Virus record (IMG/VR): IMGVR_UViG_2599185359_000001
Coordinates: 1 to 64,000 of that record
Direction: 5' to 3' (one strand)
Length of the DNA stretch: 64,000 bases
Source: a virus
Taxonomy: Duplodnaviria; Caudoviricetes
The position numbers and the translations under genes are program-made. The notes below the pieces were generated by a model. It did not search any database. It was given only the letters and a program-made list of their open reading frames with translations, and had not been told where the DNA came from. Below are positions 1 through 62,248 of this stretch, in pieces. Each line of letters begins with the position of its first letter. Positions within the stretch are counted from its first letter, which is position 1.

Positions 1-1236
1 CTAACTTCGATTTTCAGCCGCCTGTCCGAAGTTCCCGTTCAACACCTTCGCACCGTCGCGCAGGAAATCGAGATGATCGGACCAATGCTGCATCATCCGC
101 ACGCGTTCGTCCCAATACTCGCCTCGGGTGTAGGCGCGGCGCACGGCATTGTTGTCGCAGTGCGCGAGCTGTCGTTCGACGGCGTCGGGGTGCCATAGAC
201 CCATTTCGTTGAGCAGCGTGGCTGCCATTGCGCGGAAGCCATGGCCGGTCATTTCGTCCTGCGCATATCCCATCCGGCGGAGTGCTGCATTAATCGTGTT
301 CTCCGACATCGGCTTTCGGACGGATCGGAGGGATGGGAAGAGATAGCTGCTATAGTCTGCGTCGTGCTCGATCGAGGCAAGGATCGCGAGCGCCGGGCGG
401 GAGAGGGGGATCGCATGAGCTCGCCGCATCTTCGTCTTGTGCGGCGGAATGGTCCAGATCGCCCGTTCCAGATCGAAGTCCTGCCATTCTGCGAAACGTA
501 GCTCGCCAGGGCGGACGAAGACGTGTGGCAGGAGCCGCAGCGCCGCGAGGGTGTTCGGCTGCCCCTGGAAGCCCTCTATGGCCCTTAGGAGCTCTCCTGC
601 GGCCTTTGGCGTGGTAACAGCTGCGCGATGTGCTGGCTTGGGCGCGATCAGTGCGCCGCGGAGGTCGGCGGCAACGTCACGCTCGGCGCGGGCGGTGGCA
701 ATCGCGTAGCGAAATACCTGCGAACAGGTGCTGCGGAGCCGCTTTGCCGTCTCGTAACGCGCGTTGCCTTCCATCTTCCGCAGCATCAGAAGCAGTTCCT
801 GCGCGGATATCACGGCGATCGGGCGCTTGCCGATCGACGCGTTGATGAAACCGAGAAGCCAGCGGAGCTTCTTCATCGTGACCGGTGAGCGGCCTTCCTT
901 TTCGACCTTGGACAGCCATTCGTCCGCAACCGCTTCGAAGCTGTTGGAGGCAGCGACGGTCGCCGCTACCCGATTGAGCTTGATCCGCTCGGCGGGATCT
1001 TCGCCGCGGGCCAGCACTTTCCGCGCGGCATCACATTCTGCGCGTGCCTCTGCCAAGCCGGTGTCGGGCCAAACCCCGAAAGCGAGGGTCTTTTGCTTCC
1101 CATAATGCCGAAAGTTCATCCGCCAATAGCGTCCGCCGGATGGCGTCACGAGCAGGTAGAGCCCGTCTCTATCGCTTAGCTTGTAAGCCTTGCCGCGAAT
1201 CTCTGCGGCTTTGATGGCAACCACCGACAGCGCCAT
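1..1236 (-). CDS. P4-family tyrosine integrase with N-terminal Arm DNA-binding domain (belongs to an island extending left of the window)
   Basis: N-terminal DRDGLYLLVTPSGGRYWR arm domain; catalytic RPGE..., HGFR, H and Y (RRAY) motifs; start taken at MALSVV (1236); sits just downstream of a tRNA 3' end. Confidence 0.95.
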   Translation of the reverse strand: MALSVVAIKAAEIRGKAYKLSDRDGLYLLVTPSGGRYWRMNFRHYGKQKTLAFGVWPDTGLAEARAECDAARKVLARGEDPAERIKLNRVAATVAASNSFEAVADEWLSKVEKEGRSPVTMKKLRWLLGFINASIGKRPIAVISAQELLLMLRKMEGNARYETAKRLRSTCSQVFRYAIATARAERDVAADLRGALIAPKPAHRAAVTTPKAAGELLRAIEGFQGQPNTLAALRLLPHVFVRPGELRFAEWQDFDLERAIWTIPPHKTKMRRAHAIPLSRPALAILASIEHDADYSSYLFPSLRSVRKPMSENTINAALRRMGYAQDEMTGHGFRAMAATLLNEMGLWHPDAVERQLAHCDNNAVRRAYTRGEYWDERVRMMQHWSDHLDFLRDGAKVLNGNFGQAAENRS

Positions 1237-1400
1237 GATGGTATCTCCCGTCGAAGCGACCGGCACATGCCATCAGAAATACCATCAGCTTGTTGGTATG
1301 TAGTGGCATTTTGCCAGCTTGAATGAGAGACTTATACCACCAAAAAACCGCAGAAAACAGCCAGTTATGGCATGTTCTGGAATGCCTTGAGAAGGCAATT

Positions 1401-2942: not shown

Positions 2943-4601
2943 ATGCTGAAGCGGTTCATCAACTGGCTGGCGCGCAAGACGCCGCAATACAAGGCGCTCG
3001 AGGCCAATCGCGACGAGTGGCGCGACGACTACCTCGAAATGTGCGCACGTCGCAGCACCTGGGAGAAGAAGGCCAGGGGCTACCAGGACGTCCTGGTGGA
3101 GATCACCGGCTCGATCGAGAGCATCACCACGCCCAACGGCACGCTGCGCAAGATCCGCCGCATGGCGAACGAAGGCCTCGCCGGCTGATGGCCAGCGTGC
3201 CGCCATCGGTCGCGCAGGCGATCCAGGACCACGTCTTGGACTTCGAGCGAGAGACCAAGAACAACGGAAATCCGCCGTTCTATATGCGCGATCTGACGGC
3301 CGCGGTGCTGGCCAAGGTGGTAGCGGCGCCGGATAGCCCGGGCCGTATCCTCCGCATGTTAAAGCGCCAGGGCTTCGTCGACTATCGCGTCGAAGATCGC
3401 GCGCGTTCGCTGTATCGGTTTGTCTGATGACTGTGTCGAGCAACACACACGCAATTTTGCGGTCTCACTCATTCGCGAAGCTGATGCGATATGCTGATCG
3501 ACAAGCTCTCGTGTTTCTGACGCGCGACGAGACCGGGTCGCTGAAGATCATCGTGCAGCTGTGGTGCGTTCGCGAAGACAATCAGCTGCGCATTTCGCTC
3601 GCGGTCGACGGCGCCGACGATGAGGTGATCGCCCAGGGCTTTCACACCCTGGACGAAGCCCAGCTGAAGCGAACGCTGGACGAGCTCGGCGTCGACAAGA
3701 CGCTGGCGCAGCTCGAACAAGCAGCCCTGCCGCCGGCTGTTACGAACGCACAGCCGGCTGCTGATAGCGAGCCGAGGGTCTACTTCGACTGCGGCCAGTG
3801 CGGCGAAATCGGAAAGGTGGCCGACCTGAAGCAGCACGCCACCCGCCCCATGCCGGACGATATCGGGTTCTGTCCGAAGTGCCGCGTAGAGGTCGACGAC
3901 GTCCTGAACGAAACGGAGGTGCGCGAGCGGCTCAGGGAATACGACGAGGACCCGGACGCGTTTCTCGCGAAGCTCGGGGCTGGTTGATGACCGATCGCGG
4001 CATTCTGATGCTGAAGCCGATAGGCAGCGTGCCGCGCGACGGGCGCACTGTCGGGGTGTTCTGCCCCGGCGAGACGCCGGAGCACGTCTCCTGCCGCTGG
4101 TCGAGCGCGCCCAACGAGGATGGTACCGTCGCGTGGGAGGGGTTGATGTTCGTCGAGCCGATGCTCGCCGACGTTTGCCCTGACGGCCCGCAGAACGCGA
4201 CCCACTGGTACGATCTGCCGAGCATCGAGACCCAGTTGGTAAACCCGGCGTGGAAGTCGGAGCGAGAGATGCTTCGGGAGTCCTACGAGCAGGAGTTCGG
4301 CCGCCCGCGCGACAAGACCTGGCTCGGCGAGCTCGAGCCTCATGAACGCTTCACCCAAGAACAGCGGGCCGTGCTGATGGAGCGGCAGCTGCGGGCGGAT
4401 GCGGCCGACGTCTACTGGTTCGTTCAGTTGGAGCGCCAGACTGATGATATCCGCAATCCTCTGCGCTCCGGCTACCGCAAGATTTCGGCGCCCTGTCCGG
4501 TGCTGCAGGACTTCCGGCCGGAGCGGGGTGACGCCTACATCGTCGTGCCTTCCGGCAACATTCAGCGCGCCGAGTGGTCGGTGCAAGGCGAGCCAAGCTG
4601 A
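2943..4601 (+). CDS. Four translationally coupled hypothetical proteins (2943-3188; 3188-3427, wHTH-like; 3427-3987, two CxxC; 3987-4601)
   Basis: TGATG stop/start overlaps and phage-like codon use. Confidence 0.7.
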
Positions 4602-6205: not shown

Positions 6206-6594
6206 CGCACAACGAGGGCAACACGAAATACCGCCTGCAGCGGCTCATGGCGTCCCGTCAGTGGCTGATCCGTGCGGAGACGTTCATCGCCGGAAAGCCA
6301 CAGCCCCTGATCCATATCGAGAAAATCACGGATGTTGGCCAGGACGAGGAAGGCGCGCTCGTCGAGGGACTGCAGCGCCTGCGGCCAAAAGTGAAGCGCG
6401 GCGAGGAGCTCGCCTTGGGGCGAGACGTCTCTCTTCCGCCGGACCCGGTCGTCGATCGGATCGTCGCCCGAGAGCGCGCGCAGCGGGAGAAGGCCGAGGA
6501 AGCTCGCCGACGCGCGCTGGACGAAGCGCAAGCTCACCGTGAAGCAGCTGCTCGGCAGCTCGATGAAGCCAATCCGATGTGGGGGATGTTCTGA
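6202..6594 (+). CDS. Hypothetical protein with C-terminal NPMWGMF tag
   Basis: Coupled ORF; charged helical tail then tag and stop. Confidence 0.75.
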   Translation: MTHNEGNTKYRLQRLMASRQWLIRAETFIAGKPQPLIHIEKITDVGQDEEGALVEGLQRLRPKVKRGEELALGRDVSLPPDPVVDRIVARERAQREKAEEARRRALDEAQAHREAAARQLDEANPMWGMF

Positions 6595-7332
6595 TGGCCT
6601 CAAACCTCATCTGTGACACGGGCCGACACACCCTGTCGACCGAAGCGATCAACCGCCACTGCCATCACTGCGTGATGGAAGCCGCACGGCAGCGTTGCAT
6701 CGAACGCGGGGAGGGGTGGCGCTGGGGCGTCGAGACGATCGTGGTAGAGGTCAACCGCGACGACGCGGCCGCCTTCCGTGTGCTGGTGGGCAGCTTCCGC
6801 AACGCGAGGATCCTGACATGATCACGATGGAGGAGAAGGCTGCGGCCTGGATCGTAACCGCACGACACATGCTTCGACTGAACTCGGCCGGGCCGCTGCA
6901 CGCGGTGATCGAGGACGGGAACGTCGACGACGAGCACCTTTGTGCCGCGCTGGAAGACCCGGCGCTCACAGAGGCAGAGCGCCACTTCGCGACCATGTTC
7001 CTGCAGTGCTTCACCGCCGACGAGCGCGTGGCCATCTACGAGCTGACCACCGGCGCCAGCTGAGGCGTCGAGAGCAATGCCCTCTTTGTGTCATGTTCGC
7101 TCGCTGCTACCTCCAGGTCTCCCAAAATGAGGAGAGAGCGATGGATAAGCAGCAGATCGCGGACATGCTGGAGAAGATCGACGCCAACCTGAAGTTCATG
7201 TTTGGTGAGGCGGCGCGTCTCGCCGGGTCTCCCAAGGAAGGCTTGGGCCGATACGAGATGTGGGACGACAAGACCGGGGAGAAGATGCCCGACCTGGTCG
7301 AGCTGGCCGCAGCGGTGCGCAATCTTCCTTGA
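6594..7332 (+). CDS. Three small hypothetical proteins (6594-6821, 6818-7063, 7141-7332)
   Basis: Coupled starts; GAGGAG SD before 7141. Confidence 0.6.
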
Positions 7333-7516: not shown

Positions 7517-7663
7517 ATGGCTACCAAGTTCATTGCTGGCGACGCCACCACGACCCGCCGCAAGCGCGTCGCGCGCCCGACCGGCAAGCGCGTCGATATC
7601 GGCAAGGTGGTGAGCGACATGCACGATCGCTACCCGACCGTTATGGCGCACCTCGCTGAATGA
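7517..7663 (+). CDS. Small putative antitoxin (48 aa)
   Basis: SD AGGAGG; ATGA overlap with the Doc/Fic gene; C-terminal RYPTVMAHLAE resembles Doc-partner antitoxins. Confidence 0.65.
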   Translation: MATKFIAGDATTTRRKRVARPTGKRVDIGKVVSDMHDRYPTVMAHLAE

Positions 7664-8307
7664 GTGAGCCGCTCTGGCTCACTACGAGCGAGATAATCGA
7701 GATCAATGCACGCATCGTTGCGAGGACGGAAGAGCCCTCGTTTGTAAAGGATTGGCCGGCGCTTGAGAGCGCGGCTGACCGGCCTCGCAACGCATATGGC
7801 TACGGGCAAGATGACATTGCCTACCTGGCCGCGATGACGTGCGTTGCGATCGCCCAGAACCACCCGTTCATGCAGGGCAACAAGCGCACGGCGCTGATCG
7901 GAATGCAGGTGTTCCTGCAGAACAACGGCTACAGCTTCAACGCGCCCGACGTGCGCGAGGTCTCCCAGCTCATCTATGACGTGGTCGAGCATCGCCTCGA
8001 TGTTGATGGCCTTGCCGACCGCTTCGATCCGTGGATCGAGGAGCTAGGGGAGGGGTATAGCGGCATGGATCTCGGCGACCTGATCGCCGGAATGCCAGCG
8101 CAGTCGTTCTCGATCCACTTCACCGCTGGGAGCAAGTTCGACGGCGGTGGTGAGATCAACCTCACGCCCAAGGGAATGAAAACCATCACTGTATCTGTGC
8201 TGCGGCAGTCCGTTGACGCCGTTCAACATGAGGCAAGACGGCAAGCCGCCCAAGCGCGCTTCTGGTCCAAGGCAAAAAAGCGGCCGCCGGGCGACGAGCC
8301 AGCCTAA
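7660..8307 (+). CDS. Doc/Fic-family toxin
   Basis: HPFMQGNKRTA Fic/Doc motif; LESAADRP. Confidence 0.9.
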   Translation: MSEPLWLTTSEIIEINARIVARTEEPSFVKDWPALESAADRPRNAYGYGQDDIAYLAAMTCVAIAQNHPFMQGNKRTALIGMQVFLQNNGYSFNAPDVREVSQLIYDVVEHRLDVDGLADRFDPWIEELGEGYSGMDLGDLIAGMPAQSFSIHFTAGSKFDGGGEINLTPKGMKTITVSVLRQSVDAVQHEARRQAAQARFWSKAKKRPPGDEPA

Positions 8308-8811
8308 CGGTGCTTCTTCTTGGCCGACCGCAGCGCGTGGAAGTAGGCGGTCACCACCCGAGTGCCATCCACAGGGCCAGGATCCGGCCGCCGGGCGGGA
8401 ACCACGAGCACCTGATCCGATCGGCGGCAGGATGAGCACCTGAAGTGCCGGCTGGCGGCCGGCAGTTCCAGGGGCCAGCCGCGCTGGCGGAATTGCAGCC
8501 AGATGATCGCGTCGATCCGCTCGCCTCGAGCGCAGCGGAAGCACCACACCCTGATGTCCTGTCCCGCCTGGTCTATGGCCTCAATGGTCCGCATCGGTGG
8601 AACATAGACGGAACACTCACGGCCAGCCAGATCAGAAATCGATGTCGCGGCGCTCCATCTCCGAGGCGAGCGCCTCGACCGCCGGCGTTGTGGCATCGCC
8701 ACACGCGGCGGCCGTGCGCTGCCACTGGTCCACGAGTTCCTGGTCCGTTTTCCCGGCGAGCTCGCGGGTCCACTGGTCCAGCTGGTCCTTTGTCCAAGGG
8801 TCCGTCGTCAT
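8304..8811 (-). CDS. Zn-ribbon protein (8304-8594) and small hypothetical protein (8632-8811)
   Basis: CFRC...CSSC in the first; the second is DQ-rich. Confidence 0.55.
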
Positions 8812-9151
8812 CCTGGCAGCATGGTCCAGCTGGTCCAGCGAGGCAAGTGGGGCAGGGAGCTCGGCGGTGGATGGCACAAGCGGGCTCATCGGCGCCTGTG
8901 GATGGCAGAGTGATCGGACCACCGGCTGATAGGCGGCATCCGGGTCTAGCACTTGACGCGTTTTCTAGGACCTCCTCCTTGACAGCACTCCGATGGTTGC
9001 GAGTCGCGGTCGATGCGAGTCGCGCTTCTGTCAAGCAAACGCGACACTGTCTCTAGAGCGTTTTAAGCTACGCTAGAGCGCATAAACGAAAAAGAGCTAG
9101 TGCGACCGCTCTAGCTCTTTGATCGTGCTCTAGCGCGCGTCGTAGCGCATT

Positions 9152-9301
9152 CTAGCGTATGCTGCTAACCGCATTGCGAAGCTTGCGCGCAGCGGTGCGA
9201 ACCGCGCGGTTATCGCTAGAGCAATCGCGTGCGATGATAGCGCGAGCGTTAGCGCACTTGCGAAGTGCGGTGCGAACCTTGCGCTTGTCAGTGCGAGACA
9301 T
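9152..9301 (-). CDS. Small basic 49-aa protein (MSRTDKRKVRTALRKC...)
   Basis: SD GAGGT; ORF read by hand; contains no Pro, Trp or Gly. Confidence 0.55.
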   Translation of the reverse strand: MSRTDKRKVRTALRKCANARAIIARDCSSDNRAVRTAARKLRNAVSSIR

Positions 9302-9340
9302 AATCAAACCTCAGTAATAGCGTTGGTGCGGTGCGTAGCA

Positions 9341-9368
9341 GGTAGGTGCGCACCGAAGTGCGCACCTT
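9341..9368 (-). terminator. Hairpin AGGTGCGCAC-TTCG-GTGCGCACCT after the 294-aa gene
   Basis: 10-bp stem with UUCG loop; no U-tract, so it may be a stability or processing hairpin. Confidence 0.45.
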
Positions 9369-9375
9369 GTTAGCT

Positions 9376-10260
9376 TCACTTCATGAAGTCAGCGCGGAAC
9401 ATCGCGAAGAAAGCGTGCGAACCATCAAGCGCGATAGCGTCGCGGTTCTTCTGTACGCTCTTGATCGCACCGAGACCGAGAACGTCTAGAACGTTGCGCG
9501 CTTGCGACGACTGCGTCTCAGCACCGCTAGTCATTGCAGTGTGCGCTTGTTCGGTGAGGTAGTCGATCAGCTCTTGATCGCTGAACAGGTTCGTAAAACC
9601 TTGCGAGCAAAGAAAGCGACGATTCATGTCGTTAGTGATATCGGTGCAACCGCGATCGGTAGCAACCAGTGCGCAAGCGATGAAAGCGCGCGTTACCTTT
9701 TCGAGACGCGAACCGAAACCAGCGACGTACTTAGCGATTTCGGTAATCTTCTTGAGCGCTTTCGCGTTAAACATCGCGTTCGACGAAACCTTGCGTTCGA
9801 TGACGTCGCTTGCGTTGATACCGAGCGCGAGAAACAGACGCGCAATCGCTTGTTCATTTGCAAGCATGCGCTTGCGTTCGCGAGTGTAAGAATTGTCTTC
9901 GCTCAGCGAAAGACCGTTGCTCGCTTCGAAAGCGTCGCGACGCTCGAAGCTTTCGCGCACCGACTGCACCGCATCTTGCACGGTGACGGTATCGAAAGAC
10001 AGCGCAACGTCGCGCAGCGTGACGACTTCGCTTGCGTCGGTGTTTTCGAGCGATGCGAGCACGTCGGCAACGTCGTCAGCGTCGAGCGTGTCGTCGATGG
10101 TCGCGACCGAGGTGTCAGCGTCACCGATGATAGCGAGCGCACCAGCGCTGGCAGCGAGCGTCAGACCGTTCTTTTTCGCATAGCGCTTTGCGGCTGCTTC
10201 GCTCTTGAACGCGTGAACCGAAACCGAACCAGCGACGTCGACGAGATTGAAATCGATCAT
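9376..10260 (-). CDS. 294-aa Pro-free, Trp-free hypothetical protein; acidic N-half and probable C-terminal winged-helix
   Basis: SD AAAGGT; two AGCGGT hairpins upstream; SGAETQSSQARNVLDVLGL motif resembles the 39079-39945 protein. Confidence 0.8.
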   Translation of the reverse strand: MIDFNLVDVAGSVSVHAFKSEAAAKRYAKKNGLTLAASAGALAIIGDADTSVATIDDTLDADDVADVLASLENTDASEVVTLRDVALSFDTVTVQDAVQSVRESFERRDAFEASNGLSLSEDNSYTRERKRMLANEQAIARLFLALGINASDVIERKVSSNAMFNAKALKKITEIAKYVAGFGSRLEKVTRAFIACALVATDRGCTDITNDMNRRFLCSQGFTNLFSDQELIDYLTEQAHTAMTSGAETQSSQARNVLDVLGLGAIKSVQKNRDAIALDGSHAFFAMFRADFMK

Positions 10261-10593
10261 GATAAAGAACCTTTTCGTGAGAAGCTGCGAACCGCTTCGC
10301 AGCACCGAACCGCTTCGGTGAAATCAGTTCTAGTGTGTTCCGACATACACGCAAGCGCTTTTCCGCTTTTTCTGAAAAACCGCAGGAAAGCGCGCTTTTT
10401 GCACGTCGACTACAAGCGTGGTCGTACCAGTGTGCGAGGTTTTTGAGCGCGAATCACCGCGAATCGCTGTGTCGTTTCACACGATTCGCACCGCGCACCG
10501 ATCATGCGATTCGCAGTCGCGGTCACCGCGGCCCCGATTAAGACGAAACCGCGCGCTCGCACGTCACGCGCGCACACGCATAGGCGCCGCGCG

Positions 10594-12825
10594 CCATGGC
10601 ACCCCTACGCCCACGCGCACGCGAGTTCGCAAAATCGCCCATCCCCGAAATCGCCCAAGGACCCGAGCCCAATATGCCCACCGAGCCATACGGATTTTGA
10701 GCCATTCATCATCCGAGCCCATAGAGCTCCATAAGCCCATGGGAGCACCTGGGCACCATGAGCCCCGAAGATCCATGGCACCACCGCGCCCGGCGAGCAC
10801 CATTGGTCCATGGGCATCCATGGGCATGCCGAGATACGCGAGATCCATGGGGTGGTGCGCTCCCGAGGACGCATGGGGGATGAGACCCTCGGGAGCGCTT
10901 GCACCGGGCTCGCCGAAATGGGGAAGCGAGCCCAGGCAATCAGTGAATTTCGTGGATCATGCCGCGATGGCGATGATCTCGATAGCGGGCGCAAGCTGCT
11001 GAATTATTTCCATGAGCGCGCCCATATCGCTCCAGTGACAGCGGATGGATGCACCCCGAGGGCAAACGACCATCTCGAAGGGCATGGGCACGATGGGGGC
11101 GCCGCGCATGGTGGGATGCAGGACCATGATGCCCGAGAACCGCGAGGCGCCGGCTTCGATCCGCCAAGGTTCGCCCATCCGCGCACGCACCATGGACGCG
11201 ACGGCGTGATCGATCTTCACGATTTCCGTGTGATCCACCTCGGGGAGGATGGGCATGCCATAGGTGGCGAGCGTGACGTTCATGGGATCTGGCCTCTTCG
11301 ATTACTCGCGAGCACCGCTGCTCGCTGAAACCGATATGAGCGCATGCGTGCATGGATGCGGGCGGCTTTATGCACCGGCCGCGCGAGCCTCGATGAGCCC
11401 AAGCATCAGGAAAGCCTGGTGCCCATGGACGCCTGGAGACGCCGCACGCCTAGGGAGCCTGGGAACGCCTGAAGCCCATGGGCACGCCTGGCTGCACGAA
11501 ACCCGCGGCGCTAGGGGTCAGCAACGCCGCGGGCTCGACGGGTGTGTGGGATCAGGTGGCTGGGGTGTTGGCCACCACGAGGCTGACAAGGCCGGCGATC
11601 ATGCCGATGGAGGTGATGGTAACGCATGCCAGGTGCGTCTTGAGGGCATTAGCCACGAATGTCCTCCCATGCGGTAATGAAGCCGATGATGGCCGATGCG
11701 CCGAGAAAGATGGGCCAGGTCATTTGGCCATCACCTTGGTGCGCTCACAGGCGAACGATACCATGGCAATATCGCCGGCGGGCTTGATGTGGGCGGGGAC
11801 CCGGTAGAGCGGCTGATTGTTGGTGCGGCGAAGCATGCCCAGGCAGCTGCCCGCAGTCGGCGCGCGATCTATCACATATTCCGTGGGCTGCCCGCCCACC
11901 GTGATCGTCATGACGAGAGCCCAGAACATCAGCGGGTCTTGCCACCGAGGCGGCTCTTGCGTCGCGCCCAGCGGGCGCGGCGAGCGTCGCGATCGGAGGA
12001 ATTGATGCCCGGCGCGATACCGGTGGCGAGGGCGAATGCGATGCTTTCTTCGCGATAGTTGGACATGGTCACCTCTTCATTCTGCGAGCACCGCTGCTCG
12101 CTTGCTGAAGCTGATATGATCGTCCTGTCCGGTGGATGCGGGTGGGTATGCGAGCCTGGTCGACGGGATCTCTTGTCCTCGCCGAGCATCATGGGCGCGG
12201 TGGGCATAGCGGATCCATGGATGCCCATGGGAACGGTGTGCTCTTATTGGCTCAGATACGATCGAAAAGCTCGCCGGGCTCCATGGGCGCGGGGAGGCAT
12301 TGTCCTCATGGGCATATGGGATCGCTGCCGTACATGGAATTTGGGAGCGTGAGGGGCGGGTGCCATGGATGCCCATGGATCTCAGGGCACAAGCAAATGC
12401 CGCGAGAACCCCATGCTCTCGCGGCATTCACCCCTCGGCCAGCGGGAAAAGGAACCGGCTGGCGTCGTTGCGGTCTGGTTTTTATGATCGCCCTTGTGAC
12501 CGCGGGCAAGGGCTATTGGGTCAGAATGAGCGACGGCCGGGTTAGATTGAGTGGTCGCGCCGGAGCTTGTTTAGCTCGTTTTCCTGATCCGTGGTGAGGT
12601 CGTCCGTGCACAGCAGATCATCCGCCTCACTCCTCGCGTCGGAGACTATCTCCTCGATGCGTTCGATCCGCCGCTTGAACTCTGCATCGTCCATTTGCGC
12701 GTGCTCCTTGATGCGCGTTGTCTCGTTGATCTCGGTATAGCGATCGTTCCGGCGGACTAAAGCGGCTTGTTGACGGCATCAAGCTTGGCGAGGGGCGGGA
12801 GGCTATGGGCTCGGGTGACCCATGG
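10594..12825. repeat. CCATGG-dense region (16 copies)
   Basis: Counted directly; three pairs lie exactly 10 bp apart. Confidence 0.85.
10957..12694 (-). CDS. Small hypothetical proteins (10957-11283, 11720-11929, 11929-12066, 12542-12694)
   Basis: SD sequences; two are preceded by AGCGGT hairpins. Confidence 0.55.
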
Positions 12826-20437: not shown

Positions 20438-21151
20438 ATGACTGACCCCAACGCCATTCTCATTGATCGGATTGATGCCCGCTTGCAGGTGCTCAACCTG
20501 TCAGATCGCAAAGCGTCCCTCAACGCGATCGGCAAACCCGACCTGATCCGCGACATTCGCCGCGGCAAGAAGCGTGCGGAGCTTCCTGCGCTGGCGCGGG
20601 CGTTGGCCACGACGGTCGATTTTCTGGAAGGGCTGACGGACAACCCGTCGCGCGCCGAGCCAGTGAGTGACGGTGCTCCCCAGATGCCCCGCCCAGAGGA
20701 GATGGAGAAGGACATTCCGGTCTACGGCACTGCCCTCGGCGCGGAGGTCAGCTTTTGGTCCGAGCACAACGGCGAGGTGGCAGTCGAGCAAACGGACCTG
20801 AACACAGGCGAGGTCATCGATTACTTCCGCCGGCCGCCAGCCCTACGTGATCGCCGCGACGTCTACATGCTCTACACGGCCGGATCGTCCATGGCGCCAG
20901 CGTTCGAGGAAGGCAGCCCGATCCCCGTGGATCCGAAGCGACCGCCGGCGATCGGCAACTACGTGGTGGTCTATCTGCGGGACCAGGACGATGAGTATGC
21001 GGCGGGCGTCCTCATCAAGCGCCTCGTCAAGCGCTCGGCCAGCTTCATCGAACTCCAGCAGTTCAACCCGCCGGCGACGTTCCGCCTGGAACCGCGCCAG
21101 TTTCGAGCGGTGCACCGGGTGATGCCCTGGGAAGAAGTGTTGGGGGTATGA
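20438..21151 (+). CDS. CI/LexA-like repressor (HTH plus S24 peptidase)
   Basis: N-terminal HTH; IPVYGTALG cleavage region; catalytic Ser in GSSMAP and Lys in LIKRL. Confidence 0.9.
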   Translation: MTDPNAILIDRIDARLQVLNLSDRKASLNAIGKPDLIRDIRRGKKRAELPALARALATTVDFLEGLTDNPSRAEPVSDGAPQMPRPEEMEKDIPVYGTALGAEVSFWSEHNGEVAVEQTDLNTGEVIDYFRRPPALRDRRDVYMLYTAGSSMAPAFEEGSPIPVDPKRPPAIGNYVVVYLRDQDDEYAAGVLIKRLVKRSASFIELQQFNPPATFRLEPRQFRAVHRVMPWEEVLGV

Positions 21152-21275
21152 GCGATTTTAAGCGCTTCTGAGCGCGTCTAACGCGACGCGCGGTCGCACT
21201 ACCTAGAGCGCTCTAAACGCGCTGAGCGAGCGCGAGAGAGCGATTTAGAGCATATCGCGCTCGCTAGTGCAGAAC
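21148..21275. repeat. GG/CC-free, helically periodic element homologous (inverted) to 35098-35173; strong-gyrase-site-like
   Basis: Direct alignment of the two copies; lies between convergent genes. Confidence 0.6.
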
Positions 21276-34945: not shown

Positions 34946-35046
34946 GAGAATCTCCTTGTGCGAGCACCGCTGCTCGCGTTGTGTGTGTCACCTAGCACAG
35001 TCTCAGCGTCGCGCAAGTGGGTTCTTTCGGTGCGTGTTCGCGCCGG

Positions 35047-35173
35047 TGAAGTTTCTTCGAGGTGTGCAAGGTGCGCTAGATTGCGCTGCGGTGCGATCTC
35101 AGCGCGATTTGAGCGCTTGAGGTAGTCTGACCAACCTTGCGCAAGCGATGCGCTCAGACGCGCTTAAAATCGC
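35047..35173. repeat. Second GG/CC-free periodic element (strong-gyrase-site-like)
   Basis: Aligns with the reverse complement of 21151-21228. Confidence 0.6.
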
Positions 35174-35435: not shown

Positions 35436-36191
35436 CTAAGCGGCAAGATCCATTGGCTCGATGCCGGTGATCTCGGGCAGCCGCTTGCCGGTCATGCTGA
35501 CTGTAAAGCCCAGCTCGATCTCCTTGTGGCAGTATCGGGCGTAGACCTTCGGCTGGAGCTCGGCTGCGCGCGTCAGATCGTCCTTGGAGGACATGATGCA
35601 GATGATACAGCTCTTGCGGCTCATCCCGGCACCGTAGGTCCAGAACGGCTCTTCGCCCGCTGCCTTGATCAGCTGAAACACATGCTCGGTTGAGAAGCCG
35701 TGGATCGGCAGCCAGTCGTACCATTCGCGGCCGGCGACGGAGTTGCGCTCGTTCCGCTTGAAGTCGACCAGCTTGCCACGCTTCGGGCTTTCCGCCGCGC
35801 GCATGCCCATGCAGTTCACGACCAGCCCGCCGAACTCCGGGTGCGCGGCGAGGAAGCGACGGATCTCGCGTGTGATCGGGCCGGTCTTCAGGTCGGACGT
35901 GCACTGGCGGTTTGAGGGCGAGGGGAACATGCCGCGGTGATCGACCATCTGCCAGAACGTCTTGCAGGCGTGCGCCTCGATGATCGGGATACCCGCGCTG
36001 TACCGCTCGATGTGCTCGACCGATGCGTCCCACTCGACCTCGGGCAGAACCGCGTGAACGATCAGCAACTGGCGATGAGGGATCAGCCGCTTCAGCATCA
36101 CCTTCATCGCCTGGCTGTCCTTCCCGCCGCTGTCGTTGATGACGAACAGCCCGCCGCGCTCGACAAGATCCTTGATGTGCGCGGGCAGCAT
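35436..36191 (-). CDS. PAPS-reductase/DndC-like PP-loop protein
   Basis: SGGKDS, RQCTSDLK, GMRAAESPKR, WLPI, SCIIC. Confidence 0.85.
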   Translation of the reverse strand: MLPAHIKDLVERGGLFVINDSGGKDSQAMKVMLKRLIPHRQLLIVHAVLPEVEWDASVEHIERYSAGIPIIEAHACKTFWQMVDHRGMFPSPSNRQCTSDLKTGPITREIRRFLAAHPEFGGLVVNCMGMRAAESPKRGKLVDFKRNERNSVAGREWYDWLPIHGFSTEHVFQLIKAAGEEPFWTYGAGMSRKSCIICIMSSKDDLTRAAELQPKVYARYCHKEIELGFTVSMTGKRLPEITGIEPMDLAA

Positions 36192-37852
36192 CAGAAAGCC
36201 ACCTCGTCCTCGATGACTGGATCGATGACGATGCCGGCAGCCGGCAAGCGGCGTTGCCACTCAATTGCACCAGCTTCGGGGAACGCCTCACGAAGTCGAT
36301 CCAGCGCCTCCATCTCGGTAGAGCCGCGGATCGCTCCCGCGCTACCGCCGTCGATCTCGCGCCAGAACCACGTCTGCGCGTCGGGGTGCGGCTCGCCATA
36401 AAGCTTGCTCTCACGGCCCAGGATCTGTGCAGCGATCCATGGTATGACGGCATTGTAGTCGCCGATGCCGGGAGGGACGCAGCCTTCCCAGACGATGGTG
36501 CCCGGCAGCCCCTTCGACGCTCCTTCGACGTATACCAGCCCGTCCTTGAATACGCCCGACCACGCGCCATTGAGGCAGTCGAAGTGCCGACCCCGTTCGT
36601 CCACTTTGGTCTCGGACGCCCACACCGTCACGGTGCTGCCATGACCTAGCGCGAAGTGCTTGCTCATCAGAACGTCGCCCCCTCGCGCATGCGCCGCTCA
36701 TCAATGCCGCGGCCCTCGTGTTCGACGGCGGCGGTCACATCGATCTTGATCGTTAGGTGATCTTTGAGGAGCTTCTGAGCTTCCTCGCGAATGACCTTCT
36801 CGATCAGCTCGTTCAGCTTGGTCACGCCCGAGCCTTGCGGCACACGCCATTGCGTCAGCTTGCGGCCGACCTCGTCGCGGATGATGCTCTCGATGAAGGC
36901 ACCACCCACGAAGCCCTTGTTCACGCGGGTCTCGACAACCTCCTTGAACAGCCCCCGGATCATCTCCCTAGGATCGACACCCACCTCGTTGACGTAGGTG
37001 CGGATCGCCTGGAGCAGACGCTGGTTGCGCTTGCGATTGGCGGCATTCTTCTTGCGCACGGGCTTGTCCGTCATGCCGCCACCGCCAGGTCGACGCGAGC
37101 ATTGGCATTCTGCGAGACGTGAATCAGGCCCGCGATGAAGTTCACCTCGCGCTGCGAGAAGCCGCCGACGCTGGTGCGCTCCTCACGATCCACGCCGTCG
37201 ACGGCCCAGCGCGCGGCGTTTTCGAGAAGGCTACGCGTCAGCTTATCGCCGGTCCGGCGGTTGTTGTAGACGAGCATGTAGAAGAGGCGTTCGGTCTTCC
37301 CGCGCTTGCCGGCAACCCACGCGAAGAAGCGATGAGCGAGGCCCGGCCACATGACGCGCCGTTCGATCAGCGTTGCCGCGACCGTCGCGGCCACGTTACC
37401 GCGGAGCGCGCGCAGATCGAGCGCAAGCTCCATCATATCGGTACGCTGGGCAGCGCTGTAGAACTTGGCGCCGGGGTGAAAGGGGACGATTTTGGGGAGG
37501 CGGGTGCCGCGCATCAGTTGTGCTCCGGGTGCTTGCCGTGGATCGGTGCGTGACGGCACGCATCAATCATGCCCAGCATGATGAAGGCGCGACGCTCGCC
37601 ACCGACACGGTAGGAGAGATAGAAGGGGCGGGGGCCGATCGGGAAATCGTCGGCCCAATATGCGTCCTGATTGAACATCTGGGAGTTGTGCCAGGATGCG
37701 ATGGACAGGCGTCGATCGCCCTTGCGGAAGAAGATGAGGTTGAAGCGACCGTGCAGCAGCACCGCATACAGCCAGATCAATGCCGCAAGTACGAGGAGCG
37801 TGGCGATCGCTGCGGTCGCCCCGACCCCGATCCAGTAGAACGCTTCGGTCAT
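36191..37852 (-). CDS. Hypothetical proteins (36191-36667, 36667-37074, 37071-37514, 37514-37852 membrane)
   Basis: Coupled ORFs. Confidence 0.7.
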
Positions 37853-38472
37853 GCCGCTTCCTTCAGCGGCGGTAGGCCGAGCGACTGGTTGAGGTTCACG
37901 AGGGGCACTGCCGGCAGCTGCACCTTGGCGACCGCCTTGATGAACTGCTCTGCGATGGGCATCACCTCGGGCCATCGCTCGCGCAACTGACGATCGGAGC
38001 GGATCTCAGACAGGATGCCCGTCACCTCTGCGCGACGAGTGTTGATTTCGTCGGCGATCCCCTCTTGGTAGAGGACGAACTCCATGACCTCGGCGCCAAA
38101 CGCATCGTCAGCCTCGAAGCTCGCAAGAGGGTTGTCGCCGGTGTCGCTATAGGGCACGTAGAAGCCAGGCAGCTTCACCTCGGCCGGCTTTAGGCGATTA
38201 ATAGCGTTGCCGGAGGCGTTCGAGTTTCGCCCCAGCGTTACGCGCGCGCCGGCGATGTTCAGCGGCAGCGTGTTGCGGAAGTATGTCGAACCTTTGTGCG
38301 TCTCGCTCATGAGCTTCAGGGCCGCCCGAACCTCGGCGGAATAGATGCGCTCGAATACGCGCCGCATCAGCGGTGCCTCGAGTTGGAAGAAGGCCAGCAG
38401 CTTGTCACGGAAGCCGTGCTTGAGCACCGCGTTCGTGATGTCGGCGCGGATGTCGTTGTTGATCGCGACCAT
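37849..38472 (-). CDS. Nmad5-like (nucleotide-modification-associated domain 5) protein
   Basis: N-terminal NNDIRADI; C-terminal QLRERWPE...LPAV..LNQSLGLP pattern. Confidence 0.6.
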   Translation of the reverse strand: MVAINNDIRADITNAVLKHGFRDKLLAFFQLEAPLMRRVFERIYSAEVRAALKLMSETHKGSTYFRNTLPLNIAGARVTLGRNSNASGNAINRLKPAEVKLPGFYVPYSDTGDNPLASFEADDAFGAEVMEFVLYQEGIADEINTRRAEVTGILSEIRSDRQLRERWPEVMPIAEQFIKAVAKVQLPAVPLVNLNQSLGLPPLKEAA

Positions 38473-41271: not shown

Positions 41272-41934
41272 TCATGCCGCTGCCCGATTGGCGAGGCCGA
41301 AGGTGGCTGCCACGAAGTCCGCCGCGGTCGCGATACGGTCGGCGCGGTCGGTGTTCTCGCGCAAGATGGTGCCGATCCGCGGCGCCATGTCCGCCAAGCT
41401 CTCATCGAAGAGCATGCCGCGCACCAGGAAATGGATATGCTCCTGGTAGGCGGCATTCATCGGCGGTTTGCCATCCATCGGCTCGAAGGTGATGGCCGGC
41501 GGGACCAGGATCACGAGATCGAAATGCTGAGCGGTGAGGCTGATGGCGCTCTCGACATACTGAACGCAGTCGTCGCGAACGCGAGGCGAGCCGGCCGCCG
41601 CCGAGGCATCGGCGAGGTAATAGGCGGCTGCATCGATCGGCGTTCGGTCGCACACGTAGCTCACCGGGCCGCCGTGCGCCTTGCTGAGCGCCGCGGACGC
41701 CTCGATCTGGCCCACCATGGCGTCCATGATGCGCCCCTGCATCACAGTGCCCGTGTTCAGGCGATTGTGTCGCTCCATGTCGAAGCCGTGAATTTCGGCA
41801 ACAACGCCCGCCGAGCTGGACAAGAAGGGGACGTCGAAGAGCTTGGCGATGGCGCGGGCGAGGGTGGTCTTGCCCACGCGGTGAGCGCCAGCGAAGCCGA
41901 TGCGCGTTCCGTTGAGGTGTGTGTTGTTCACCAT
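41272..41934 (-). CDS. P-loop nucleotide kinase (AAA_28/dNMP-kinase-like)
   Basis: GAHRVGKTT Walker A; DRTPID. Confidence 0.75.
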   Translation of the reverse strand: MVNNTHLNGTRIGFAGAHRVGKTTLARAIAKLFDVPFLSSSAGVVAEIHGFDMERHNRLNTGTVMQGRIMDAMVGQIEASAALSKAHGGPVSYVCDRTPIDAAAYYLADASAAAGSPRVRDDCVQYVESAISLTAQHFDLVILVPPAITFEPMDGKPPMNAAYQEHIHFLVRGMLFDESLADMAPRIGTILRENTDRADRIATAADFVAATFGLANRAAA

Positions 41935-41943
41935 ACGCTCCAG

Positions 41944-42591
41944 TTAAAATGGGTGCCGGAGGACGAGGTCCGTCCAGGTTTCCAGCGTGATGTCGCCGGC
42001 CGCCGCGCCGAGAACGAGGGCCTGCGGCGCCGCCCATCGCGCGTTCTCGATCACGTCCTCGAACTTGGCAGGATCAATGCCCGGCAAAGCCTGGACGTCG
42101 ATAACGGCCACAAGGCCGACGTGCACCTTGTCAACATCGGACGCCGCCGAGCTGATCACCGCCGCCCAGTTGCACAAGCCCGCGCGCTGTTCGTCGGAAA
42201 GGCGCAGCAAGCTGATGCCGAGCTCTTCCTCGAGCTCGCGGATGCAGGCGGTCTGCATCGTAGCGCGAAGATCGATGACGCCATCTGCGTCATAGACCGC
42301 GTCGCTTCCGTCGACATGGCCCCCGAACCCGATCGACGCTTTCGCATGCAGCCGAGCGTCGCCTCCGCTGGCGCCGCGCTGATAGACCAGCACGTTCTTG
42401 CCATCACGGATCACGATGTAGGGGATCGGCTGAACGAAGTCGAAATCCACTTCCAGCTTCGGCCGCGGCCCGATCCACACCTCGCCTTCTGCGAAGATAT
42501 GGCCCACGTCGTCCGGTTGGTGACTGATACCGAAGCCCAGATCACCAAGCGAAGCTGCACGGATCGCGATAATATGCGCGATCTTGGACAT
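41944..42591 (-). CDS. NUDIX-family hydrolase
   Basis: GFGGHV...RELEEELG Nudix box; QPIPY. Confidence 0.8.
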   Translation of the reverse strand: MSKIAHIIAIRAASLGDLGFGISHQPDDVGHIFAEGEVWIGPRPKLEVDFDFVQPIPYIVIRDGKNVLVYQRGASGGDARLHAKASIGFGGHVDGSDAVYDADGVIDLRATMQTACIRELEEELGISLLRLSDEQRAGLCNWAAVISSAASDVDKVHVGLVAVIDVQALPGIDPAKFEDVIENARWAAPQALVLGAAAGDITLETWTDLVLRHPF

Positions 42592-43487
42592 CAGAAGTTC
42601 CCCTTCTCGGCCATGATGCTGCTGATGCCGTCTTCGCCGACCATCGCAACGAAGTCCGAGAAGAACTGCGGCGCATGGGAGCGGGCGGACTCGAGGATCA
42701 CCGGCGCCAGGCGACGGATTTCGAGGTCGGCAGGCTCAGCGCCGCGGATCGAAAGAATGTGGCGGAGCGAGCGAAGGTTGGCGGTGAAGATCAGTCGCGT
42801 CTCGGCGGCATTGGGAAGAAGCGACCGGGCTGCCTCGTTCGCGCGCTTCTTCAGCGACACGATGGCATTCTCCTTCGCGCCGGCGGCCTGCATTGCGCGC
42901 AGGCGGGCGACGAACTGCTCCTGCAGCGCGACATATTCACGCAGGGAGTTGTTGCACGAACGGCGGAAGATCGTGAGTTCGGGATCGGCCTCGAGTTCCT
43001 CGGGCGTCATGCCCTCCAGGTGGTAGGCGAGGAGCGGCGGCAAGACGAAGCGAATGTTCTTCGCATCGACATAGCGCTGGCTCTCTTGGCTGTAGGCGAC
43101 TCCGACGCGGTGACGCAAAAGTTCGTGGGTCAGGGATCGCGAGACGCCGGAGATCAGGAAGCAAAGGCTGACATGCTCGTAGATCGAGCCGTGCCGCTGC
43201 TCCTTGATATTCAAATGATAGGCGGTCGAGTCGCGACCCTTCTCGAATGAATTGTAGCACTGGCGGCCAGCAAACTCGGCGATGTCATCACCGTTGCCGC
43301 CAAACTCGGCGTCGGGCACTGCGAAGGTGCGGCCCATGATTCCGCCGATGGGCGACGCGGCATTTGCGGCGGCATCTTCGACGTCGAGCTGGCTGACGGC
43401 GTCTTCCAGGCCAGAAAGACTGAAAACGGTTCCGGCGAACTTGGAAACGGCCGGATTGAATACGATTTTATCCATCGAAATGGGCAT
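42591..43487 (-). CDS. thyX: FAD-dependent thymidylate synthase
   Basis: HGSIYEH, THELLRHR...SQESQRY, ARSLLPN, EIR. Confidence 0.95.
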   Translation of the reverse strand: MPISMDKIVFNPAVSKFAGTVFSLSGLEDAVSQLDVEDAAANAASPIGGIMGRTFAVPDAEFGGNGDDIAEFAGRQCYNSFEKGRDSTAYHLNIKEQRHGSIYEHVSLCFLISGVSRSLTHELLRHRVGVAYSQESQRYVDAKNIRFVLPPLLAYHLEGMTPEELEADPELTIFRRSCNNSLREYVALQEQFVARLRAMQAAGAKENAIVSLKKRANEAARSLLPNAAETRLIFTANLRSLRHILSIRGAEPADLEIRRLAPVILESARSHAPQFFSDFVAMVGEDGISSIMAEKGNF

Positions 43488-47797: not shown

Positions 47798-48406
47798 TTA
47801 AGAAATAAGAGCCGCCATCATCCCCGCGAGCTGACGGAATTGTTCGCTGGCGATCGCCGCCTGCACGCCGGAGATGGCGTCGGCCTGGTGCTCCATGTCC
47901 TTGAGGATGTAGCCGCCGCGGTGCTCGATCTCGAACTCGTTCTTCCGGGGACCGACTCCCCACTCGACCGGACTGTCCGTGCGTTCGGTGAGGGCCAGCG
48001 CCCAGCGCATGATGTCCTCCTTGTCGGCAGTCTTCGAGCCTACCGAAGCCATCTTCACCTCAGCCGGGCTGACCTCGATCAGCGGAATGGTGAGCGATGC
48101 GAGAATGCCGATCGCGATACCGAACGCGCTCGCTGCGTTCGCGCTCTGACCGCCAGACGGTACCTCAGCAGCACCAACCCTGATCTGGTGCTGTGCGATC
48201 ACCTCGCGCAGCTTGACCGCGTGAGCGCGTGCGCGGTGCATCTTGTCGCTCGAACTGCGAACCTGCTTGTTCTTGGTCTTCTCGGTCTTGATGGTGCTCA
48301 TCTCGAGGACGCGGATGATCTTCCGGGTCTCCGTGCACACCTCGCACACCGCATAGCCGGTGTGCGTGAGGCTGGGATCGATGCCCAGCATTCGAATGAT
48401 TGTCAC
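47798..48406 (-). CDS. RuvC-like Holliday junction resolvase
   Basis: GIDPSL.HTG, AE, VSPAEVK, K, HQADA. Confidence 0.85.
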   Translation of the reverse strand: MTIIRMLGIDPSLTHTGYAVCEVCTETRKIIRVLEMSTIKTEKTKNKQVRSSSDKMHRARAHAVKLREVIAQHQIRVGAAEVPSGGQSANAASAFGIAIGILASLTIPLIEVSPAEVKMASVGSKTADKEDIMRWALALTERTDSPVEWGVGPRKNEFEIEHRGGYILKDMEHQADAISGVQAAIASEQFRQLAGMMAALIS

Positions 48407-51253: not shown

Positions 51254-52309
51254 TCACTCAGCTCCGACCATGCGGGCTTCGCGCAGCACATCCAGCGCAT
51301 CGACGGCGATCCGCTTCTTGGACAGCTTGCCGGCGTCCAGGTGCTTTGCGACGTAGGAGGCGACGGACACCTCGAGTGTGACATTCTTCGTGCCAGTCGA
51401 CTGTCCACGCGTGACTTCGCGCTTCTTGGAGCTGTGATCCACCCAGGCGAGCGCTCCAGCCTGCTTCAGCGCTTCGCGAGCGCTGGTGAGGGTGTCAGCG
51501 TCAGCATCCTTGAGACGAAGGCGCACATAGTTGCCGTTGACCGCGTCGACATCGATCTCGGCGACATCGTCGATATTGACGAACTTCGGCGCCAGGCTTT
51601 CGTGAAACTCGACGCTGGTCGGGTCGACGATGAGGAAGCCGGCGAGGGTGCCGGGATCGCTCCAGGTCTGATGCGTCGTTGCACCGATCGAATAGACGCC
51701 GGGAGCCGGCTGCTGGTGGTGGTGGTAGTGCCCGATGAATACGCGGCGATAGCCCCACGCCTTCACCTCGGCCGGGTCGAGCCCGTGGTCGGGCAGGCCT
51801 TTGATGACGCCGTTCAGCGGCGCGTGAATGATGAGATCGCGCTCCGGGTCGGCACTGGCCTTGCAGACCTCCCGGAGCTCGTTCAGGTCCTCGATCCAGG
51901 GGACCATCATCACCTGCTCATCGTCGGCGGTGTCGATCAGGGTGGAGTTGGTGACCGCGGTGAAGCCGTCGAGCTCGTCGAGCGCCTGCATGGCGTTGCC
52001 GAGCGCCGAGGCGTGCTTCCCCTTGAGATCGTGGTTGCCCGCGAGCGCCCAAACGGACACGCCCTTAGCGATGATCCGCTTGAAGCAGGCGATGACGGGG
52101 TTCTGGACCTCGGGGTCGATCTTGCCGCGGACGTGGTAAAGATCGCCGCCGAGGAACAGATCCTTGCCTCCGGCCGCCAGCACCGCGTCAGCGCTACGCT
52201 CGAGTTCGCCCAGGATGATTGCCAGGCGGGTGTTCACGCCGTCCGCGTTGGTGGTAGCGAAAGCGGACCATTCGTGCGCGTGCTGGTCGCTGCTGAGGCC
52301 GTAGGGCAT
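51254..52309 (-). CDS. SbcD/Mre11-like nuclease
   Basis: SDQH, GGDLYH, GNHD, GHYH. Confidence 0.92.
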   Translation of the reverse strand: MPYGLSSDQHAHEWSAFATTNADGVNTRLAIILGELERSADAVLAAGGKDLFLGGDLYHVRGKIDPEVQNPVIACFKRIIAKGVSVWALAGNHDLKGKHASALGNAMQALDELDGFTAVTNSTLIDTADDEQVMMVPWIEDLNELREVCKASADPERDLIIHAPLNGVIKGLPDHGLDPAEVKAWGYRRVFIGHYHHHQQPAPGVYSIGATTHQTWSDPGTLAGFLIVDPTSVEFHESLAPKFVNIDDVAEIDVDAVNGNYVRLRLKDADADTLTSAREALKQAGALAWVDHSSKKREVTRGQSTGTKNVTLEVSVASYVAKHLDAGKLSKKRIAVDALDVLREARMVGAE

Positions 52310-52321
52310 AGGATCCGATCC

Positions 52322-61685: not shown

Positions 61686-62248
61686 TTCAGCTCCAAGGTT
61701 GCACCGTTGCGCTGCACGCGCTTGCACACGGTGAGAATAGAAACGGTCGCGTAGGTGCTGCGCTGCGCGTTCTGAGCGCTGAGCGAGAAGCTTTGCGCGA
61801 TGCACGCGGTCAATTCGCGCATCGTGTGCGGTCGCTCTCGCAGCGCGCTGATGACGGCCGCCATGATGCGGTTCACGCCGGCCACGACTTCGATATGCGC
61901 GTGCCGCGGGTCGATGCGATTACGAACCATTTTGTCGATTGTGGAATGCGCTCGCAGATCCAGGTGCGTCTTGAGCGCCATCACGCCTTCTTCGTCCGGC
62001 ATCGGGGCGGGCGGGGTTGGCTCGGGCTTCTTGCGAGCAGCTGCCTTCTCGGCGCGCGTCTTCCAAGCCTCACTCATTTTCTTACCCGTGCCGTCGCTGA
62101 AGCGATCAAGCAGGCGCATCATCTGCGGCCGACGCTTGTCTACCATAGTGGCACAGTCGGCGTGCGCCGCGCACGCGGTGCAGTTCGGCGAGCCCGCGTC
62201 GAACGCGAGCGAGGAGCCGAAGCAACCAGGGGCGGGCATGTGTGTCAC
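61682..62248 (-). CDS. Hypothetical protein with N-terminal Cys cluster and wHTH-like C-terminus
   Basis: PGCFGS...CTAC...C. Confidence 0.7.
   Translation of the reverse strand: MTHMPAPGCFGSSLAFDAGSPNCTACAAHADCATMVDKRRPQMMRLLDRFSDGTGKKMSEAWKTRAEKAAARKKPEPTPPAPMPDEEGVMALKTHLDLRAHSTIDKMVRNRIDPRHAHIEVVAGVNRIMAAVISALRERPHTMRELTACIAQSFSLSAQNAQRSTYATVSILTVCKRVQRNGATLELK

Follow-up and report, generated by a model that had tools for sequence, protein, structure and literature searches.

The window analysed here is a 64,000-nucleotide stretch of viral DNA (IMG/VR virus record IMGVR_UViG_2599185359_000001, positions 1 to 64,000) that corresponds to contig C16:25307-89306 of a 4.77-Mb genome (genome code G000) and sits in a prophage of ~110 kb integrated in the chromosome. 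Some 9 kb into the window lies a small minus-strand operon that comprises a regulatory region, a gene for a 294-amino-acid (aa) protein, a predicted second open reading frame (ORF) and a terminator-like hairpin, followed by the probable promoter region of the next gene (Table 1). Together these elements form an island in which one short word, GG followed by A, C or G, is almost completely missing; we write this word as GGV or, on the opposite strand, BCC (V, any base but T; B, any base but A). Our conclusion is that selection has recoded one small phage operon so that neither strand holds GG followed by A, C or G.

By direct count, positions 8992-10528 contain 39 ACC and 25 GGT, 64 in all, versus seven GG or CC in any other context (at 9396, 10066, 10150, 10192, 10340, 10363 and 10385). 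This recount matches exactly the tally and the seven positions given in a first-pass annotation, which had been made from the letters of the window alone. The tetranucleotides GGCC and CCGG and the trinucleotides GGG and CCC are all absent, where 10, 11, 26 and 20, respectively, are expected from the rest of the window. The edges are sharp, as the annotation also stated: the closest words beyond the island lie at 8989 and 10530, and both flanks have a normal density of 36-53 words per 300 bp. The annotation was likewise right that other palindromes stay common, as GCGC (36), CGCG (34), TCGA (14) and AGCT (8) occur at or above expectation and GANTC is enriched (7 versus 1.4 expected), as is CTAG (10 versus 0.9). 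The GC content of the island is 56%, versus 63-67% around it.

The genome-wide and recoding comparisons below had been proposed in the first-pass annotation. In 1-kb windows across the 4.77-Mb genome, prophage and host together, the number of GGV/BCC words averages 145±18.6; the island holds 1-7 and the runner-up among the lowest regions holds 63. Against a codon-matched null, in which the 294-aa protein was recoded synonymously 5000 times with prophage codon usage, 86.9±6.8 words are expected with a minimum of 65, and four are observed; the depletion is significant. For control words of matched density (among them GG[^A], GG[^G] and [^A]GG), no gap like that of the island emerged. The purge is also paid for in protein composition. 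The 294-aa protein has neither Pro nor Trp and encodes all 14 of its Gly residues with GGT, the 49-aa product of the second ORF lacks Pro, Trp and Gly altogether, and both Shine-Dalgarno sites are built on an AGGT core, all of which, apart from the choice of Gly codon, the annotation had reported.

The distribution of the missing words indicates at what level the selection acts. On the sense strand GGV and BCC are both purged, and the purge reaches ~175 bp upstream of the predicted promoter and continues beyond the terminator. Because untranscribed flanks are covered, the purged unit is a DNA segment and not a transcript alone, and because both strands are affected as well, the pattern points to duplex DNA. 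Avoidance of the word in RNA, as in escape from an mRNA interferase, was rejected on the same observations, and a tier of purging restricted to the sense strand was looked for in this prophage and not found.

Within the island, the predicted promoter, which we take to resemble the alphaproteobacterial sigma-70 consensus, was not detected by a scan for E. coli-type promoters; three of the seven residual words lie in or beside it. At the other end the island stops exactly at the Shine-Dalgarno sequence AAGGAGGAGG of the downstream gene, which is conserved in this position and marks a sharp edge in all relatives. Among relatives, the island's second gene is variable and often encodes a small membrane protein. 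GANTC sites cluster at both island ends (the four listed in Table 1 and two within the GCGACTCGCA repeats, 8998-9023), and their roughly five-fold excess is seen in this island and not in G003, a purged relative whose genome assembles as a circle. CTAG-rich repeats lie between the terminator-like hairpin and the TTGACA/GCGACTCGCA element. CTAG is normally very rare, yet all three islands in which it was counted show a 5- to 17-fold excess of it (the present island, G003 25.6-26.6 kb and, in the Rhizobium phage RHEph10, 98.8-100.1 kb); the excess here comes in part from GCTAGAGC and GCTCTAGC repeats that resemble alphaproteobacterial -10 boxes. An antisense frame of 314 aa stays open across the island (9502-10446, plus strand). 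Word-free islands give rise to long open antisense frames, and these mislead gene callers.

Table 1. Features of the island, its surroundings and the remainder of the window, in window positions.
Feature	Position	Strand	Remarks
GGV/BCC-free island	8992..10529	both strands	7 words versus ~180 expected; GGT/ACC density normal or higher
B-CCATGG-V arrays	10594..12825	.	16 sites, three pairs exactly 10 bp apart; between small early genes, upstream of island
Four GANTC (CcrM-type) sites	10451..10512	.	in ~175-bp word-free region upstream of predicted promoter
Promoter-like TTGCGTG-N13-ACTAGAAC	10327..10354	-	putative; alphaproteobacterial sigma-70 consensus (presumed)
Two tandem leader hairpins, AGCGGT loops	10285..10320	-	just upstream of AAGGT Shine-Dalgarno
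Gene for 294-aa protein	9376..10260	-	AAGGT Shine-Dalgarno upstream
Perfect 9-bp stem, TTCG loop	9345..9366	-	between the two genes
Basic ORF, 49 aa, isoelectric point (pI) 11.9	9152..9301	-	predicted; GAGGT Shine-Dalgarno
Terminator-like hairpin, then T run	9092..9119	-	loop contains AGCGGT, as in leader hairpins
TTGACA and two GCGACTCGCA repeats	8998..9034	-	likely promoter region of next gene; word-free
Downstream gene, product begins LDPDAAY	8632..8980	-	strong Shine-Dalgarno AAGGAGGAGG at 8971-8980
Doc toxin (Doc/Fic)	7660-8307		
Integrase	1-1266		
Largest word-free patch in window	61692..61856	.	5′ end of DNA polymerase III alpha subunit (PolIII-alpha) ORF
Other word-free patches in window	3371-3535, 21144-21275, 35042-35172, 48178-48307, 50391-50531, 53157-53257, 61171-61318		

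The purge is conserved in distant homologues of this locus, another comparison for which the annotation had called. At eight loci whose proteins are 40-60% identical (L004, L005, L006, L009, L010, L011, L012 and L013), islands of 0.7-1.9 kb hold 0-7 words each, versus 110-130 per kb outside; one of the eight lies in a complete phage of 103.5 kb with 48% GC. When the islands are pooled, GGC/GCC, GGA/TCC and GGG/CCC are depleted at least 50-fold, and GGT/ACC is 1.26-fold enriched relative to the flanks. The protein-level cost is shared as well. Certain dipeptides force the word (Met before Asp, Glu, Ala or Gly; Trp before most residues; Pro after residues that have no NNA codon), and these number 6.9±2.9 per 220 aa in other prophage proteins versus zero in ~85% of 103 family proteins, which span 33-99% identity. 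Two loci are partly eroded, with 12-17 words (L002 and L007, the latter on the same contig as L014), two further family copies have normal word density, and more remote homologues mostly have a normal amino-acid composition. Samples of 400 Sphingomonadaceae and 400 Pseudomonadota genomes did not contain the family, nor did INPHARED phages or PLSDB plasmids, and searches of viral contigs with remote homologues (four single proteins and one alignment) returned a single locus, L038.

The 294-aa protein consists of a small N-terminal beta domain, an acidic linker and a conserved core of ~220 aa that ends in a predicted winged helix. In the AlphaFold2 model (predicted local distance difference test score 87.8), this last part corresponds to residues 185-294, which align to many winged helix-turn-helix domains (best Z 8.5, root-mean-square deviation 3.5 Å over 84 residues), with further fold matches at Z 6-8 to ORC/Cdc6, MarR and ArsR-type chains. 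Because these Z values are middling, our confidence that the protein carries a winged helix, modelled as a three-helix bundle with a beta-hairpin wing, is moderate. The invariant residues G246, T249, Q250, S251, S252, Q253 and R255 open one polar helix (motif G-x-x-TQSSQ-x-R), and the median pI of the family is 8.9. Together with the palindromic arrays that adjoin the gene, the polar invariant helix and the basic pI lend indirect support to sequence-specific DNA binding by the putative winged-helix protein. Pfam, PHROG, PDB sequences and the ESM Atlas yielded no functional name by homology. A Foldseek search of the PDB returned no match at E<=0.001. As regards iteron-type replication initiators (RepA/RepC-like), Pfam, PHROG and PDB sequences gave no match, and the weak fold matches to ORC/Cdc6 winged helices are generic. 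Matches in BFVD are confined to two uncharacterised phage proteins, and none of ten remote homologues has an informative Pfam family. A likeness to the 348-aa neighbour P0105 was rejected (hhalign probability 0.2%).

Arrays of CCATGG adjoin the gene in all 13 family loci and also in L038 and RHEph10. Near the gene the hexamer reaches a density of ~5 per kb versus 0.34 per kb in the host, and pairs spaced by 10 bp, which recur in the arrays, number zero among ~1550 host sites. The bases flanking the hexamer are biased in a specific way. Of 282 half-sites in arrays from seven loci, ~4% are of the A type (A 5′ or T 3′ of the hexamer); at CCATGG sites in the host the share is 20.2% of 3112. In the 48%-GC phage, where ACC makes up 45% of all NCC, the A-type flank is found at 0 of 20 half-sites in arrays and at 9 of 28 at scattered sites. 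With this flank nearly missing, the site in the arrays can be written as B-CCATGG-V, and the purged word is what forms the outer triplet on either side. The first 50 kb of the Stenotrophomonas phage BUCTxx99 contains neither arrays nor an island. At two loci the family gene is duplicated within the arrays, as paralogue pairs 3-4 kb apart (L003:6001-6654 with 9961-10617; L008:1385-2023 with 6314-6988). No type A paralogue shows the purge; of type B, the L008 copy is purged (0 words), and the copy in the Novosphingobium prophage G001 has 61 words and intermediate codon usage.

The match between purged word and array flank holds when both change. In the 294-aa family, the arrays are flanked by C, G or T, and CCC, GCC and TCC are purged, ACC not. 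The remote homologue at L038 has arrays of the form S-CCATGG-S (flanks G 11, C 3, T 0, A 0), and in its gene region GGC/GCC (1 versus ~27 expected) and GGG/CCC (3 versus ~15) are depleted, with GGA/TCC (34) and GGT/ACC (28) normal. The candidate recognition helix reads TQSSQAR here versus TQASQMR in L038; it differs where the word differs. A third lineage came from a blind scan for word-free gaps, which located an island at 98834-100054 of the cultured Rhizobium phage RHEph10. This island holds 7 GG/CC of any kind versus 169 expected, and here GGT/ACC is purged too (3 versus 37); the lowest 1-kb window in the phage holds 4, against a mean of 137.5±16.6. In the arrays of RHEph10 (86.8-98.8 kb), each of the four bases occurs outside the hexamer (G 18, C 8, T 5, A 5). 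Thus, in 12 of 12 base-by-lineage cells, the flank used in the arrays is the word that is purged. The island gene of RHEph10 (99195-99809, minus strand) encodes 204 aa with one Gly, no Pro and no Trp, and its product aligns with the superfamily over 166 collinear columns (hhalign E 3e-4). The GenBank coding sequence gp097 (L042:3105-3785; 99105-99785 of the RHEph10 record) appears to run antisense to this real minus-strand gene.

Shorter word-free segments exist elsewhere in the prophage. Outside the island we found ten GGV/BCC-free gaps of 100-164 bp, eight of them in the window; the host has four such gaps in 3.9 Mb, and control words give 0-2. In G003, a word-free patch immediately precedes the PolIII-alpha orthologue, as a counterpart of the one at the 5′ end of the ORF here. 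G001 retains one patch outside its island remnant versus ten in this prophage; because G001 is unpurged, island and patches vary together. In an orthologous head-module gene, a GGV-free patch of 165-240 bp occupies the same part of the N-terminal coding sequence in this prophage (G000:C16:114692-114856, ~25 kb past the window end) and in G003 (52174-52415), two phages that are ~45% identical, which suggests an embedded cis element.

What reads this word? Its specificity changes with phage lineage, and this argues that the reader is phage-encoded; the only candidate that is always present is the island's winged-helix protein, and so we favour self-exemption from an array-binding regulator. We estimate the probability at roughly 0.45 that the operon is a zone kept unbound by the array-reading protein, probably its own product. 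In such a scheme, purifying selection on duplex DNA would keep a complete small operon (regulatory region, winged-helix gene, second ORF, terminator and next promoter) free of the 3-bp word that makes up the outer triplet of each half of the xCCATGGx array sites. The island's own protein would read the arrays, binding strongly to paired hexamers and weakly to single GGV words, and the word-free operon would escape occupation, roadblock or spreading by it. The operon would thereby evade the regulation imposed on the array-studded early region, and the ten shorter patches may be further escape zones. The data establish the purge with its significance and conservation, its cost to the proteins, the synteny with the arrays and the joint variation of word and array flank; the identity of the reader, the harm done by binding and not by chemistry, and the regulatory purpose are inferred. 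The first-pass annotation had proposed a phage-encoded modification or binding activity directed at BCC/GGV. The idea of an activity that reads sequence, tells GGV/BCC from GGT/ACC on duplex DNA and has the locus kept free of its word is supported by the strand symmetry, the non-coding flanks, the conservation among homologues and the identity of the word with the outer triplet of CCATGG sites. Between the two activities named there, the evidence leans towards binding, in the simplest case by the winged-helix protein of the island, and away from a covalent mark.

Several observations weigh against an exemption of this kind. All GGV are purged and not only those in the TGGV context of a half-site, so single triplets would need to have an effect, and few DNA-binding proteins behave in this way; and the rest of the phage, with ~119 words per kb, is evidently functional. 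DNA binding by the winged-helix protein is itself a prediction. In this prophage the predicted promoter and the arrays are >200 bp apart, and in RHEph10 the arrays are located downstream of the gene. The orthologous gene in the collinear prophage G001 has 61 words, and its protein and arrays look intact. Eight unpurged proteins that carry word-forcing dipeptides form one paralogous clade nested in the family (SH-aLRT 99), with the same helix and the same arrays. Finally, the second and third lineages, L038 and RHEph10, are supported by one locus each.

The main rival is a context-specific covalent modification, by which an enzyme of the phage or the host would alter C or G within BCC/GGV; it would account equally well for the match between array flank and purged word. 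The arrays would be built of markable sites whose occupancy depends on the mark, and the operon and promoter patches, being unmarkable, could be used by host RNA polymerase and regulators regardless. This model would also explain why each occurrence of the word counts in any context. Phage base-modifying enzymes with 2-3-nucleotide specificity are known, for example the NTC and NTG thymine dioxygenases (PMC13229309), and the prophage offers candidates in Nmad5, a PAPS-reductase-like PP-loop protein and two methyltransferases. However, when the prophage proteins were screened for presence or absence in the purged G003 and the unpurged G001, Nmad5 was absent from G003 and present in G001, and the cluster of Nmad5 and the PAPS-reductase-like gene was rejected as the agent because it does not track the purge. 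An NPPF amino-methyltransferase is common to all three phages, purged or not, and the only protein in both purged phages but not in G001 is one of 104 aa that belongs to no known family. A 7-deazaguanine route was rejected too, since the prophage has no TGT or DpdA and the only TGT is a host gene on contig C13. In addition, the model needs two co-evolving parts, a modifier and an array binder, shifting in step across three lineages. We consider modification unlikely, and the phage-encoded modification suggested by the annotation was not supported.

A more far-reaching variant of binding, which we regard as quite unlikely, is that the winged-helix protein coats or spreads over any word-bearing DNA, nucleating at the CCATGG arrays, and that the division into word-rich and word-free DNA sets gene timing and perhaps host shut-off. 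The words would then constitute a sequence-coded layer of visibility in which the reader's own operon is the sole fully invisible unit, and evolutionary changes of the word (SCC, BCC or NCC) would go hand in hand with those of the reader's recognition helix.

Avoidance of a hostile activity on DNA, such as nicking or cleavage at frequent sites, deamination specific to CC or a CRISPR system with a CC-type protospacer-adjacent motif (PAM), appears very unlikely to us. It would require that the product of the early operon is made before the rest of the genome can be protected, as in the site-free first-step-transfer (FST) region of T5, and T5-like phages do resist restriction-modification, CRISPR and Ssp systems only if the FST region is site-free (PMC10644984). 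A near-total purge at the cost of amino acids suggests that even one hit does damage, the phage has a set of repair genes (a uracil-DNA-glycosylase domain fused to PolIII-alpha, FEN, ligase, RecA and SbcC), and the erosion in L002, L007 and G001 fits a host-dependent pressure. However, a host agent is not expected to match the array flanks of a phage in three lineages, ~13,000 words elsewhere in the genome stay exposed, and other GC-rich palindromes are not avoided. ACC is kept, although in the Zymomonas type I-F system all NCC PAMs are functional, ACC included (PMC6868425). Type I-F CC-PAM avoidance in particular was rejected: Cas1 (PF01867) was searched for and not found in the 100%-complete host genome, and ACC/GGT stands at 1.26 times the flank density in the islands. 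The early entry of the island would moreover be an assumption. The annotation had suggested that the locus is read first or serves as a packaging, entry or origin landmark; this was not supported, and the 15 kb from the island to the prophage end have normal word density.

That the purge has no function, being a mutational footprint (for example of deamination at CC coupled to transcription) or a cassette acquired recently from a genome without the word in any part, is extremely improbable: the lower GC of the island and its edges, which resemble cassette boundaries, would suit this, but the purge persists at 40-60% protein identity and in backgrounds of 48-67% GC, each with normal flanks, extends past both the predicted promoter and the terminator, keeps conserved Gly as GGT and leaves the array-flank match unexplained, and we met with no genome purged throughout.

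The FST region of T5-like phages (PMC10644984, with Davison and Brunel 1979 as cited there) is among the closest known systems. Like the island, it is a bounded early region of a large siphovirus without otherwise frequent sites, and it adjoins a repeat-rich non-coding region. In contrast to the island, what it lacks are the 4-8-bp targets at which particular host systems act and not a degenerate word of 2-3 bp, and it is the physical first-entering end, whereas both island flanks have normal word density; in addition, the island has a reshaped protein composition and a word that matches the phage's own array flanks. Selection also removes short DNA words in the depletion of PAMs or restriction sites from phages, which is reported to be partial and genome-wide (PMC4246573, PMC12174588); here the loss is near-total and confined to 1.2-1.6 kb and short patches. 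The exemption of ACC is a misfit with depletion of NCC PAMs. As here, multi-operator repressor networks such as the stoperators of L5 gp71, and iteron or operator arrays adjoining the gene of their binding protein, place many copies of a site among early genes, by a gene of the helix-turn-helix type; the difference is that here the operon is purged of a 3-bp sub-site and the binding is presumed. We know of no multi-operator system in which the operon of the binding protein is purged of a 3-bp sub-site. A further parallel exists at the RNA level, where ACA-less targets of MazF and the GCU-poor mqsRA are messages without the word that their own system reads. In these systems, as in the island, a gene without the word escapes a short-word reader encoded in or beside it; they act on RNA and on the sense strand only, whereas the island involves both strands and untranscribed flanks.

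These results have implications beyond this prophage. Through selection on a DNA word of 2-3 bp, an entire operon can be recoded to the extent that Pro and Trp vanish and one Gly codon becomes fixed, and recoding on this scale implies that something reads very short words and has strong effects locally. The match of word and flank across three lineages directly links a protein family of unknown function, its probable sites and a new kind of self-exemption, and it is testable. Because the same module is present in RHEph10, a cultured phage of Rhizobium etli, bench work is possible at once.

By comparison of PolIII-alpha, the closest cultured relatives are the Rhizobium phages RHEph10 and B1VFA (~40% identity), with Klebsiella SSU5-like and Stenotrophomonas phages ranking next. 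The label of SSU5-like given in the annotation is thus apt in a broad sense only, as the nearest cultured relatives are Rhizobium phages and the element is chromosomally integrated. The PolIII-alpha gene (58266-61805) encodes a C-terminal domain of the uracil-DNA-glycosylase superfamily, and the same fusion is annotated in RHEph10. Among the other prophage genes are those for an ATP-dependent ligase, an S24-type repressor, the two methyltransferases, ThyX, RNR, SbcC, RecA, a gp32-like protein and FEN. A Phd-like small ORF followed by the Doc/Fic toxin gene (7517-8307) lies ~0.7 kb from the downstream edge of the island. Candidate DNA-modification genes, for the PAPS-reductase-like PP-loop protein and Nmad5, are found at 35436-38472, and genes for a P-loop AAA_28 protein, a NUDIX protein and ThyX at 41272-43487; these suggest a modified base in the phage, yet they do not track the purge. 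Beyond the window, at G000:C16:126198-126328, a 130-bp AT-rich stretch (38% GC) with TATATA runs occupies an intergenic gap by terminase-region genes and could be a packaging or origin site.

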